Sequence record: LR597660
DNA: 64,000 bases
Strand: one strand, 5' to 3'
DNA from: Escherichia phage T4_ev151
Of this stretch, positions 17,041 to 63,474 are shown in pieces. The position numbers and the translations under genes were made by a program. Under the pieces are notes generated by a model. It had not been told where the DNA came from and did not search any database. It saw only the letters and a list, made by a program, of their open reading frames with translations. How positions within the stretch are numbered: position 1 is the first letter of the stretch; every line of letters starts with the position of its first letter.

Positions 17041-17044
17041 TTTT

Positions 17045-17209
17045 ACTCTTCTTTTTCTTTAGATTCCTCTTTCTTCTTTTTAGGAATCTGTTCAGGACCT
17101 TTATTTACTACAGCGCCCGACGTTGTTCCAGTAGAGATATTTTCAGGATTACCACCTGAATCTCCAGCTACCATATCTTCTTTAATAAATTCTTTATATG
17201 TTTTCATAT
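17045..17209 (-). CDS. small hypothetical protein (not in ORF track)
   Basis: my translation MKTYKEFIKEDMVAGDSGGNPENISTGTTSGAVVNKGPEQIPKKKKEESKEKEE. Confidence 0.3.
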
Positions 17210-57636: not shown

Positions 57637-57974
57637 CTAGTACTCAATCCTCGATTATAAGAATCTACCAAACGGTCAACCATTGAATGACAAGCGGCTT
57701 TATCTTTCTCCTCCGCAACTGAACATTCTAAGGTATTCCACTTTTTAGCATATCGTTTTAACAATGTATCATTTTTGTATCTGCTTGATTTATCTCTTTC
57801 TCCGTCTTTATATGCATATATTAATTTCTGCGCAAATTCAGCTTGGCATGCTTTATTTTTCCCGCAATAATCCGCTGCAGTACGGTTTACATACTCTCTA
57901 ATTTCAGTATATGATGTATCTGCTAACGCAGAAAATGAAATTAATCCTATACATAAAACCAAAATTTTAGTCAT
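57633..57974 (-). CDS. secreted/periplasmic protein
   Basis: 113 aa, signal peptide, 4 Cys. Confidence 0.45.
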   Translation of the reverse strand: MTKILVLCIGLISFSALADTSYTEIREYVNRTAADYCGKNKACQAEFAQKLIYAYKDGERDKSSRYKNDTLLKRYAKKWNTLECSVAEEKDKAACHSMVDRLVDSYNRGLSTR

Positions 57975-58512
57975 TTACTATTTCCAAAAGTTTATTATTT
58001 TTAAGGTAATTAGCCTTTTCTAGGACTTCAGAAGCATATTTAGAACCTGCTTTAACATTCCATCCCGAATTATAAGAGGATATTGCTTTTCTTATATCGC
58101 CCTTATGTATATTTAACCAATAAGAAAGTTCAATGTACGCCCAGGAAGCTGAATTGGATCGTTTATTCAACATTCTTTTTATTTCAGCATCGGTCATATT
58201 ATAACCAAGTTCCTTAACTCTTGCTCGCATAGTAGGCAAATAATTTTGGAACATTCCATAAGCGTGATGCTTTGGTTTAGATTTTAAATTAACTCCGCCA
58301 GAGCTTTCTTGCCATAAAATGGCTGCCATTATATGGCCTAATCCGCTCTTGTGGATGTTTTTGTGTGTTTTATATTTTCCATCCTTAGAAAATTGTTCCC
58401 CGAATTGATACGCGTAACGCATGTTATCGAGTTGGACATTACTGAAAGTATGCTCGGAGCTATGTGCCATCATTGAAATGGCCAATAGACCAGCGAGTAG
58501 TGCTTTTCTCAT
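57967..58512 (-). CDS. periplasmic protein with lytic-transglycosylase-like motif
   Basis: 181 aa; signal peptide; AAILWQESSGG. Confidence 0.4.
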   Translation of the reverse strand: MRKALLAGLLAISMMAHSSEHTFSNVQLDNMRYAYQFGEQFSKDGKYKTHKNIHKSGLGHIMAAILWQESSGGVNLKSKPKHHAYGMFQNYLPTMRARVKELGYNMTDAEIKRMLNKRSNSASWAYIELSYWLNIHKGDIRKAISSYNSGWNVKAGSKYASEVLEKANYLKNNKLLEIVND

Positions 58513-58519
58513 GCTTACC

Positions 58520-58981
58520 TCATTGAGTTTTAATTACTGCTTTAGAAGCCTTTCCTGGTAAACGACGACTGTTGATAATTGCCATCCTGCATTGAAGTGA
58601 CGGGTTTTTGAACTTCTCATTAGGCTTACAAACCGTAAATCCAAGCCAAAGATTTCCATCTGTGATTTCTAAACGTCCAGGACGATATTCAACCCCATCA
58701 ATAAAATCCTCGTCAATGTCAGGACGCGGAGGCATACTCAGGAATTCATTAACTTCTAAAACATGGTCTTTTATTTTATGGAATAATTCAAAAACATATG
58801 TCTCATCAATCTCCCGTTGAATTGCACGATCAAGAAGATGTTGAGAATATTTTAGATGAAACGATGAGACTCCTGCTGCTTTTGATGCCTCACGAATCTC
58901 ATTGTTAATTTGACGAAACTCCGACTCAAAATGACGACGAAGCTTATTTCGACGGATAAAAACTTCTGTATTGATAGTCAT
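58520..58981 (-). CDS. regB: RegB endoribonuclease
   Basis: 153 aa; position downstream of tk region as in T4. Confidence 0.6.
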   Translation of the reverse strand: MTINTEVFIRRNKLRRHFESEFRQINNEIREASKAAGVSSFHLKYSQHLLDRAIQREIDETYVFELFHKIKDHVLEVNEFLSMPPRPDIDEDFIDGVEYRPGRLEITDGNLWLGFTVCKPNEKFKNPSLQCRMAIINSRRLPGKASKAVIKTQ

Positions 58982-59008
58982 GTTGTTCTCCTCTTAACTG
59001 ATAGAAAA

Positions 59009-59038
59009 ATTATACCACAGTCAAGAGGAAAAGTAAAC
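59009..59038 (-). promoter_or_regulatory. early promoter (-35 GTTTAC / -10 TGTGGTATAAT)
   Basis: attata 59009-59014, gtaaac 59033-59038. Confidence 0.55.
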
Positions 59039-60168: not shown

Positions 60169-60498
60169 TCAATTAGAAAATAAATTTATCCAAGATTGTT
60201 CTTTAATTAAAAATGGCTCAGAATCATATGCCATTAAACTTTGCGTAATTAATCCTTTAAAAGGTCCATCAATAAATTCCATGGTAAAATATGGAATTTT
60301 ATTCATTAGCCGTGCATTAGGAGCAGTGCACAAAACTCTGCATCCTTTGAATACACCTTTTTGTAATTTGTATTGCTTGGGATAAAATTCGCTTAAAATG
60401 TTGTTATTTGCCAAAATTTCAAAATGATTCACCAATTTATTTTTAATAGTTTTTGGCGAAAAATAAAGATATTCGAAAAGCTGAGTGTCTGTCATCAT
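60169..60498 (-). CDS. hypothetical protein
   Basis: ORF trimmed at ATGA overlap. Confidence 0.35.
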
Positions 60499-61031
60499 TG
60501 CATTCCGATTACGAAAAACTGTGGACGAGTAATACCACCAATACAACATTTAATATTACAGCAGTAGTGTACAGTGTCAATATGGACGCTATAAATCTTA
60601 TCCATATCAGGAGATTTGACAGGCTCATCAATTATATACAAAATTCGCGAAAGCGATAAACCTCTGAACTTGCTTCCTTTATTACCAATAAAACTGCGCA
60701 CAGAATCAGTAAATAAACGAAAACGTATATCATTAGAATAACGCGAAAATTCCTTTTTAATGTTATTTGCAGAAATTTTAGCGTAAGCTGAAGTATTAGA
60801 AAGAACAATAACTGTTCCGCCATCATACAACCAATTAGCGGCAAAATTAGTTACTGCGGTTGATTTACCGGATTGACGTCCACCATCTAGTCGAAGTGTG
60901 CAATACTGCTTAAGTAAGTCTTCAAATGGTGGGATATATTCGTTTTTACAAATTTCTTCTACTCTAGCATCAGAATGGTGTGTAAAAGCATTCATCAGGG
61001 ATAGATAAGGACCAGTTAAAAATGTTCTCAT
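60495..61031 (-). CDS. small P-loop NTPase
   Basis: Walker A GGRQSGKST, Walker B ILYIIDEP; start approximate. Confidence 0.45.
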   Translation of the reverse strand: MRTFLTGPYLSLMNAFTHHSDARVEEICKNEYIPPFEDLLKQYCTLRLDGGRQSGKSTAVTNFAANWLYDGGTVIVLSNTSAYAKISANNIKKEFSRYSNDIRFRLFTDSVRSFIGNKGSKFRGLSLSRILYIIDEPVKSPDMDKIYSVHIDTVHYCCNIKCCIGGITRPQFFVIGMQ

Positions 61032-61184
61032 TTTATTCTCTCTAAATTTGGGCCATTCCATGGCGCATGAATTGTCCATTTCTGTATTTACCCATTACCG
61101 CACTTGGGCTCGACCTTATTACAGGTTGGCGGGAATCCCTCATAGAATCATGAGGTCCAGCTTGTTCCCATATTTCTTATTTGC

Positions 61185-61658
61185 TTATTTGAATGATTTG
61201 ACGTACTGAATAGAGCCTTTGCTATTCACAAAGGCAATTTTACCATTTTTATTATACATGGTAGCAGTACGCTGATAACCATAAGTTTGTTTACCAGATT
61301 GATAACCAACTAATGCAAAATTATCTTCGCCCATTTTATTCTGTTTAGCGCGGATGCGTTCATGGCCATGTGCCATAAGAACCTTAGCATCACCAGTTGC
61401 AATGGATCGACGAGTTTTTTCATCTTCAACTGTATTAACAAAGTCGTCAAATGAATCAAATTTAGCATGAGATTTATTATACAGTTTTCCATCTACTGCA
61501 TAATTATATCCCTGTACATCCATCTCAACTTCTGTACCATCATCCAATACAGCAGTGATTTTTTGACCTTTTTTAAATTTCAAAAGATCAGTAAAAGATT
61601 CAGCAATAATTTGAGAATTAATAGCTGCTTCAGTAATAAATTCTTGATATGTTTTCAT
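61185..61658 (-). CDS. hypothetical protein
   Basis: 157-aa ORF. Confidence 0.45.
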   Translation of the reverse strand: MKTYQEFITEAAINSQIIAESFTDLLKFKKGQKITAVLDDGTEVEMDVQGYNYAVDGKLYNKSHAKFDSFDDFVNTVEDEKTRRSIATGDAKVLMAHGHERIRAKQNKMGEDNFALVGYQSGKQTYGYQRTATMYNKNGKIAFVNSKGSIQYVKSFK

Positions 61659-61667
61659 ATGTTTCCT

Positions 61668-62084
61668 TTAAATGTAAATATTTTTGCCGTAATACTTGTA
61701 CCAGTGTGGCTTCATTAAAATTTTTTCATCAAGTCGTTGTTGACTCAATTTAATAGCTGATTTGCATGGATTATAATCATTTTTCCATTCTGCTGGAATA
61801 TCGCTGATGTCAGGAACTTCAGTATCTTTTATACTGAACCCGCGTTTTAAGCATTCCGTTATAATGTCTGATTGACGCTTTCGCAAAAATTCTAACTTAT
61901 CGTAAAAGAAAGTAACATGACCAGAACCTAAAATAAACTCGGAAGATATTTTAAAATCTTTAACCCGCTTACCATTTGCAACATGTTTACGAACTATACC
62001 AAAAACACGCGGCAATTCACGGTATTCTGCGATTAAATGTTGATCAGCAAGTTCAGATACTAAAGTCAAATTAATACGAGTCAT
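61668..62084 (-). CDS. denV: endonuclease V (pyrimidine dimer DNA glycosylase)
   Basis: 138 aa; [17 protein letters not shown]...YKYYGK. Confidence 0.9.
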
Positions 62085-62109
62085 TTTATCCCTCCAAGTA
62101 ACTGTGAAT

Positions 62110-62139
62110 ATACTATCACAATTCTAGGAGAAAGTAAAC
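62110..62139 (-). promoter_or_regulatory. early promoter for denV
   Basis: gtaaac 62134-62139, -10 TAGTAT. Confidence 0.45.
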
Positions 62140-62143
62140 AACT

Positions 62144-62674
<531 letters not shown>

Positions 62675-63130
62675 TTAAAAGAGGTTGTTCATTATTCGGT
62701 AAAGTGAAGGACCCATCACATATTGCCACTGAGTACGAGGAATAAGAGCAAAAGCATCCATCTCTGGAATCATAACGCCATCTTTATTTTCAAAATAAGA
62801 CTCACAATAGCAATTTCTGAACATCTCATGCTCTACTGGAATCGTATAATAAAATAACTGTAAGTCTTTATTACTAGAATATTTAAATACACCTAGGTCT
62901 TCTAGAAGGTCTGGATTATAATTGCTAAAACCAGTCTCTTCTAAGCATTCTCTTCGTGCTGCATCTAGTGCGCTTAAATCAGAATTTTCTACACGGCCCT
63001 TTGGAATATCCCAGCGATGTGCCATCATTCCAGGCTTACGAGAACCAGTAACACGACCCATAAATAAATCTTTATCTTCTGTCATAAAGATAATACCAGC
63101 TGATAGTGTTTTCATTTTAATTTCCTGCAA
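62675..63130 (-). CDS. nudE: Nudix hydrolase
   Basis: 151 aa; Nudix box GRVENSDLSALDAARRECLEETG. Confidence 0.85.
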   Translation of the reverse strand: MQEIKMKTLSAGIIFMTEDKDLFMGRVTGSRKPGMMAHRWDIPKGRVENSDLSALDAARRECLEETGFSNYNPDLLEDLGVFKYSSNKDLQLFYYTIPVEHEMFRNCYCESYFENKDGVMIPEMDAFALIPRTQWQYVMGPSLYRIMNNLF

Positions 63131-63474
63131 TCACTCACAAACTCTTTCATTGACTCATTTTCAATATAAGACATGTAGCTATTATATTCCTTTAATTGTA
63201 TTTTGTAATCCTTTTTTCTTTGCCAATTTATTTTAAAATTATCATAATGAAAATATAAAATGATACCAAAGAATGAAAACAATGAAATAATTTTAGTATA
63301 ACAAAGCTCACTCCAAACTTCTGTTATATTTACTGTGCCGTCGATGTTTAAAATAAGACAGTCAATTAACAATCCAAAAAGACTACCCGCAAGAGCTGCA
63401 GCCAACGCCACAGCAAAAATTAAAAATGACTCAGGAAACGAATATTTGACTTTATTTAGTTTTGGCTTTTGCAT
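63112..63474 (-). CDS. small membrane protein (tandem family, C-terminal EFVSDCRK)
   Basis: 120 aa, 2 TM helices. Confidence 0.45.
   Translation of the reverse strand: MQKPKLNKVKYSFPESFLIFAVALAAALAGSLFGLLIDCLILNIDGTVNITEVWSELCYTKIISLFSFFGIILYFHYDNFKINWQRKKDYKIQLKEYNSYMSYIENESMKEFVSDCRKLK

Follow-up and report, generated by a model that had tools for sequence, protein, structure and literature searches.

In phage T4 (NC_000866) the genes e and denV lie about 1.15 kb apart with ipIII and ipII between them, whereas in the Tequatrovirus (T4-like phage) DNA analyzed here, a stretch of 64,000 nucleotides referred to as the window, the e stop codon ends at 62144 and denV starts at 62084, so that only 59 bp separate the two genes. 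The question raised by this joint is whether the phage lacks the internal proteins (IPs) of the locus or carries them in another arrangement. The first-pass annotation had placed denV 59 bp from e, with ipII and ipIII absent from the interval, and its coordinates were exact. It had read the joint as loss or relocation of internal proteins, had proposed looking for ip-like genes elsewhere, and had taken an adjacent ip homologue as a possible sign of misassembly. Its premise that internal proteins are injected anti-restriction factors with a plausible relevance to host range agrees with the finding that each of Ip1, Ip2 and Ip3 is an inhibitor of a different GmrSD type IV restriction enzyme (PMC12373910). 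According to later papers describing the work of Repoila (1994), T-even phages have two highly variable IP loci, with many IP ORFs that have only the CTS in common (PMC2839356, PMC3012670, PMC12373910). Two of them, which cite Repoila 1994 and Comeau 2007, place T4 early promoters with AT-rich stem-loops, possible mediators of shuffling, on the flanks of the loci (PMC2839356, PMC3012670). The number of IP variants known exceeds 30 (PMC2839356). Within the CTS, positions 4 and 7 direct a protein to the prohead core, and positions 8 and 10 make it a substrate of the gp21 protease (PMC9026906).

All genes at the e-denV part of the window are located on the minus strand, and along the direction of transcription they follow the order nudE, e, a 59-bp gap, denV, a 9-nt gap, a 157-codon ORF (ip4), a 105-nt gap and a vs.8 homologue (Table 1). 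The e product matches Pfam Phage_lysozyme (PF00959, E=1.5e-13), and in the alignment with T4 gpe, of 96% identity over 164 aa, E11, D20 and T26, the catalytic residues of T4 lysozyme, are present. The denV product matches Pfam Pyr_excise (PF03013, E=2e-13) and aligns over its 138 residues, with no gap, to T4 DenV at 78% identity. Read from the sequence, it carries Thr2, Arg3, Arg22, Glu23 and Arg26, residues with catalytic roles in T4 endonuclease V, the N-terminal Thr2 and Glu23 in particular being catalytic residues.

Table 1. Features of the e-proximal IP locus of the window, listed along the direction of transcription
Feature	Position	Strand	Remarks
nudE (NUDIX hydrolase)	62675-63130	-	Pfam NUDIX E=1.5e-13; position as in T4 nudE; upstream neighbour of e
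Two T4 late-promoter consensus boxes TATAAATA in tandem	62665-62672 and 62652-62659	-	A short distance 5' of e
e, T4-type lysozyme (endolysin)	62144-62638	-	164 aa; Pfam Phage_lysozyme; 96% identity to T4 gpe
Inverted repeat / predicted RNA hairpin	62079-62143	-	First base past the e stop to second denV codon
e-denV spacer	62085-62143	-	59 bp, no ORF inside
denV, pyrimidine-dimer DNA glycosylase (endonuclease V)	61668-62084	-	138 aa; Pfam Pyr_excise; ATG at 62084
ip leader and CTS-coding segment	61635-61684	-	50 nt identical to T4 ipII leader and CTS
ip4 (ipIV), internal virion protein gene	61185-61658	-	157 codons; CTS codons at 61629-61658
Region 3' of ip4, homologous to the sequence directly after T4 denV	61080-61168	-	Marks 3' boundary of the ip4 cassette
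vs.8 homologue	60495-61079	-	92% identical to T4 Vs.8; conserved flank of the variable locus

The ORF that starts 9 nt 3' of denV, with its own Shine-Dalgarno sequence, bears on the question directly. Its product is 100% identical to T2 ipIV, RB32 Ip4 and the teqskov homologue, and it matches Pfam DUF7412 (PF24183) with E=5.7e-96 and 319 bits over a cut-off of 27, residues 1-157 aligning to profile positions 1-158, as well as PHROG 3155 (phrog_3155), "internal virion protein", with E=6e-102. The N-terminus, MKTYQEFITE/A (the slash follows position 10), agrees with the MKTYQEFIAEA of T4 IPII and IPIII at 10 of 11 positions and at nine of the ten within the CTS. It thus has the roughly ten MKTYQEFIAE-like residues of the IP class, with Y4 and F7 present, and the gene lies between denV and vs.8 in the e-proximal IP locus. 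The gp21 cleavage motif, I/L-x-E and then a small residue, is present as well, at I8-T9-E10/A11. M1, K2, F7 and E10 do not vary among 13 family members, with identities down to 61%, and position 8 is occupied by I, L or M. Beyond the CTS, Ip4 is by sequence not homologous to IPII or IPIII, being unrelated past residue 11; the overall identities of 31% and 22%, respectively, depend on gaps, and true identity is confined to residues 1-11. Once the CTS is removed, the predicted mature protein has 16.5 kDa and a pI of 9.1, basic like IPII and IPIII. The CTS, together with the annotation "internal virion protein / T2 Ip4", suggests that Ip4 would be packaged, cleaved and injected. An AlphaFold2 model from the 13-sequence alignment was poor (mean pLDDT 52, pTM 0.47) and gave no hint from structure, and a PDB sequence search with Ip4 gave weak matches that indicated no function, the best one being a designed protein (E=6e-4) whose matching stretch was sub-threshold on its own.

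Hence, the IP at this locus was replaced and not lost, because the locus carries Ip4 on the other side of denV. From the earlier reading of loss or relocation, the absence of ipII and ipIII stands, while the intact ip4 gene 9 nt past denV does not fit with a loss. The proposed search, carried out over the 64-kb window, had a similarly divided outcome: a scan with a degenerate CTS-coding pattern picked up neither an ipII nor an ipIII gene there, and its only two sites were ip4 and gene 61.1.

The second of these sites, for which 0.02 matches were expected by chance, is a 54-aa ORF on the minus strand (17043-17207) that takes the place of T4 gene 61.1, with 61.2/sp on one side and the primase gene 61 on the other. 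It begins with MKTYKEFIKE/D, close to the internal-protein CTS; T4 gp61.1 has MKTFKEFIKED at this place, like the MKTFKEF of IPI. With a pI of ~5, the small product of the ORF is acidic, as opposed to the basic IPII, IPIII and Ip4. The literature search found no paper treating 61.1 as a CTS protein, and the literature confines IP genes to the two IP loci.

The spacer that joins e to denV is itself informative. Its first ~48 nt past the e stop can be aligned with the spacer between e and ipIII in T4, an element that T2 also has in front of ip4, and what remains, ~12 nt at the 3' end, belongs to denV as its ribosome-binding site (GGAGGGATAAA, then ATG), with the Shine-Dalgarno sequence GGAGGG. 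On the minus strand the spacer contains a T4-type early promoter, with GTTTAC at 62134-62139, N18 and a TG-extended -10 box TAGTAT at 62110-62115. Over the window, GTTTAC-N17-19-TANNNT has 23 matches, the spacer site included, where 2.9 would be expected; the minus (coding) strand holds 20 of them. The spacer motif belongs to the T4 early promoter type, a class that is 8-fold enriched on the coding strand. A generic sigma-70 scan did not have the spacer promoter among its calls because GTTTAC/TAGTAT agrees with the E. coli consensus at 8 of 12 positions.

The promoter overlaps an interrupted hairpin with an MFE of -24.1 kcal/mol (z = -4.7), a value equalled in none of 200 shuffles. In the predicted RNA fold, CUUUCUCC pairs with the denV Shine-Dalgarno GGAGGGA, and the 3' arm holds both the Shine-Dalgarno sequence and the start codon. 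Equivalent T4 elements are also predicted to fold, with z = -4.3 before ipII (the ipIII-ipII spacer) and z = -2.5 before denV. The T4 denV leader is non-homologous; in its predicted fold the Shine-Dalgarno AGGAGA is paired in a 10-bp stem beside a GTTTAC promoter. The window spacer thus shows the two traits of an IP-locus element, an early promoter consensus in an intergenic element of ~60-70 bp and an overlapping inverted repeat. Judged from its sequence, it is the early-promoter and inverted-repeat element that precedes T4 ipIII and T2 ip4, here joined to the denV ribosome-binding site.

The joints on the other side of denV have a comparable structure. The segment AAAATATTTACATTTAAAGGAAACATATGAAAACATATCAAGAATTTATT, identical in window ip4 and T4 ipII, spans leader, Shine-Dalgarno and CTS codons, and the upstream part of this 50-nt ip leader segment encodes the last five codons and the stop of window denV, whose homology with T4 denV stops at GG(C/T)AA. 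Past the ip4 stop, the sequence rejoins that of T4 right after the T4 denV stop, at GGGAACAA(G/C)CTGGACCTCATGATT. From the alignments of the spacer, of the denV-ip4 joint and of this downstream joint, the breakpoints relative to T4 are located at the edges of short conserved regulatory or leader segments, which suggests that the IP-locus elements could act as recombination sites. A further pattern along the locus is that denV, whose final residues ..GKNIYI come from the ip leader, is 78% identical to its T4 counterpart, versus 96% for e and 92% for vs.8 on either side.

The alleles suggest that denV may itself be an exchangeable module, with distinct versions tied to the locus configuration. 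On the minus strand 3' of ip4, the non-coding segment 61100-61168, with a short hairpin CCTCATGATTCTATGAGG followed by GGGATTCCC, hardly varies among the window, RB3, teqskov and T4, and a longer vs.8 frame may begin with it in some relatives.

The distribution of the joint was analyzed by searching phage records with a 299-bp probe across it (window positions 61965-62263). The probe matched 537 phage records, and in 244 of these at least 80% of it was covered in one place; among the latter are Sf21, with 100% identity over 299 bp, wV7, RB68, teqskov and PYPS2T. In the annotated records of teqskov, PYps55T and Sf21, e is followed by 59 bp, denV, "internal virion protein (T2 Ip4)" and vs.8. For a matter of gene order no chance statistic applies, and it is the recurrence of the joint that shows the e-denV-ip4 arrangement to be genuine. 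The arrangement is also common and not unusual, being found in about half of the matching relatives. An Ip4 homologue is present in 470 phage records (306 at identities of at least 95%), while IpIII and IpII homologues are present in 261 and 198, respectively. For the e-proximal locus there are at least four configurations: e-ipIII-ipII-denV in T4, e-ipII-denV in UGKSEcP2, e-denV-ip4 in the window, Sf21, teqskov and PYps55T, and e-ip4 without denV in T2 and RB3.

Other pairings occur in Klebsiella phages. In KP182 (OM337876) ip4 adjoins ipIII (57893-58459 and 58544-59020) and in vB_KpnM_311F (LR877331) it adjoins ipII (165660-166136 and 166221-166478); therefore, the cassettes combine beyond the four configurations listed.

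At its second IP locus (trna.4-57B), Sf21 has two more CTS genes, one of them Ip5-like. By comparison with this relative, the window phage probably has further IP genes at its own second locus, which lies past the end of the window.

The joint could be explained in other ways. If the phage had simply shed its e-proximal IP genes, it would inject fewer accessory factors, and both the interval without ipII and ipIII and the CTS scan, which finds neither gene in the 64-kb window, would be as observed. Such a genuine loss is nonetheless very improbable: it is refuted by the intact, full-length ip4, 100% identical to T2 ipIV, that lies 9 nt past denV, and Sf21, whose junction is identical, keeps the two extra CTS genes at trna.4-57B. 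The short repeats of the locus, promoter/hairpin and leader/CTS, could also have misled an assembler or mediated a deletion in the laboratory, collapsing the repeated elements and removing ipIII-ipII. This has next to no chance of being correct, as the identical joint recurs in 244 independent records from many laboratories and hosts, that of Sf21 being 100% identical over the 299 bp, and a plain ipIII-ipII deletion would yield neither an ip4 gene beyond denV nor a denV allele of 78% identity. An ip homologue does adjoin, but with the joint common to 244 of 537 records it loses the meaning of a misassembly that the first-pass annotation had attached to it. Both misassembly and simple deletion were rejected on the recurrence of the joint and the position of ip4.

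A different objection concerns the protein and not the joint. The 157-aa ORF might encode a cytoplasmic early protein with an ancestral N-terminal tag, expressed from a denV-ip4 early operon and having no role in the virion. The sole promoter immediately upstream is an early one and no TATAAATA lies beside ip4; gene 61.1, a small acidic ORF that lies in neither IP locus, shows that a CTS-like start (MKTYKEFIKE) can occur elsewhere; and in the literature searched there was no proteomic evidence for Ip4, nor any paper that characterizes it or names its target. However, T4 ipIII and ipII, which encode proven head proteins, are also without a nearby TATAAATA and have the same promoter element. The CTS is kept in the Ip4 family down to 61% identity, with invariant F7 and E10, two of the positions required for targeting and cleavage (PMC9026906), and predicted mature Ip4 is basic, as are IPII and IPIII. 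A purely cytoplasmic protein is consequently unlikely, though less so than loss of the IP genes.

It is highly probable that the window contains one of several natural configurations of the e-proximal IP locus, in this case e, promoter/hairpin, denV, ip4 and vs.8, expressed in the manner outlined here. Early in infection, sigma-70 RNA polymerase would start at the spacer promoter, and the resulting transcript, without the 5' arm of the hairpin, would leave denV, and then ip4, translatable. Transcripts coming from upstream would hold both arms, and the hairpin would then attenuate them or mask the denV ribosome-binding site. TATAAATA occurs four times in the whole window, two of these being the boxes upstream of e; the pair is likewise found before e in T4, where the e-denV interval has no such box. 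No exact-consensus TATAAATA that could serve as a dedicated late promoter was found directly upstream of ip4. Because the only exact TATAAATA boxes nearby are those upstream of e, late ip4 mRNA for prohead assembly would be produced by read-through from these two promoters, as would that of T4 ipIII and ipII. Late expression of ip4 thus assumes that the polymerase reads through a hairpin which could act as a terminator as well. The CTS would take Ip4 to the prohead scaffolding core, where the gp21 protease would cut after Glu10 (I-T-E/A), and the protein, a basic species of ~16.5 kDa, would be packaged and enter the host along with the injected DNA. Its probable role, judged from that of Ip1, Ip2 and Ip3, would be to neutralize a host defence against modified T-even DNA.

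Recombination may have given rise to the configurations, the cassettes being bordered by short conserved segments, promoter/hairpin and leader/CTS, between which exchange could take place. As to the direction of the change, the data would be compatible with either an insertion of denV into a T2-like locus or a cassette replacement starting from a T4-like one. A bolder and rather doubtful proposal is that Ip4, the sole e-proximal IP here and the most widespread of those compared, inhibits another GmrSD subtype or a different defence, so that e-denV-ip4 would represent a distinct host-range class of Tequatrovirus, and that the hairpin limits denV translation to early promoter-proximal transcripts while late read-through still delivers ip4.

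The set of IP cassettes carried by a therapeutic or environmental T4-like phage helps to predict which wild E. coli it infects, because phages without Ip2 or Ip3 are restricted by the matching GmrSD: T2 and T6, which lack both, are restricted by GmrSD-ECOR21 and GmrSD-ECOR17 (PMC12373910). The absence of Ip2 and Ip3 in the window is plausibly relevant to host range in the same manner, although this is already established biology. The hyper-polymorphic IP locus is likewise a known feature, described by Repoila et al. (1994) according to later papers. Current understanding is unchanged, and what could still be new is confined to the target of Ip4 and the putative regulatory role of the spacer hairpin. 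The practical upshot is a correction of the annotation, which should read Ip4 at this locus instead of "no IPs".

The closest known counterparts are Sf21, teqskov, PYps55T, RB68 and wV7, which have the same gene order and the 59-bp spacer, with probe identities of 100% for Sf21 and 96-98% for the others, and which at this locus show point differences only. PYps55T, teqskov and Sf21 have a 489-bp e.2 next to nudE that is missing from the window, where e.3 has a homologue at 63112-63474, with 92% identity to T4 e.3, that runs into the first bases of nudE (63112-63130). The gene e.2 has 309 bp in T4, and none is annotated in T2. The 489-bp variant accounts for the two-piece BLAST matches of the window to PYps55T, teqskov and Sf21; BCH953P2 matches the window in one piece.

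The T2/RB3 locus (e - ipIV - vs.8) shares with the window the promoter/hairpin after e, the vs.8 flank and, in T2, an Ip4 of 100% identity, but it has no denV between e and ip4, whereas in the window denV is placed between the promoter element and ip4. T4 has in common with the window e (96%), vs.8 (92%), nudE, the tandem late promoters before e, the early promoter/hairpin after e, the ip leader/CTS DNA and the presence of denV. It differs in lacking ip4 and in placing two other IP genes before denV, with each of ipIII, ipII and denV behind a promoter, and in a denV that has its own unlike promoter/hairpin leader and 78% identity to that of the window.

A broader parallel exists with the promoter/stem-loop elements associated with IP genes and with the PeSL cassettes of RB49 and phi1 (Arbiol et al. 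2010, PMC2839356). Like the window spacer, these are intergenic elements of ~60-70 bp in which a strong early promoter overlaps a stem-loop; they border variable non-essential genes and have been proposed as recombination sites (PMC2839356). The T-even IP elements and the PeSLs are analogues and not homologues, the former having a GTTTAC promoter and an AT-rich stem without polyG/polyC (PMC2839356). In the window spacer, the 3' arm additionally holds the ribosome-binding site for the gene behind it.
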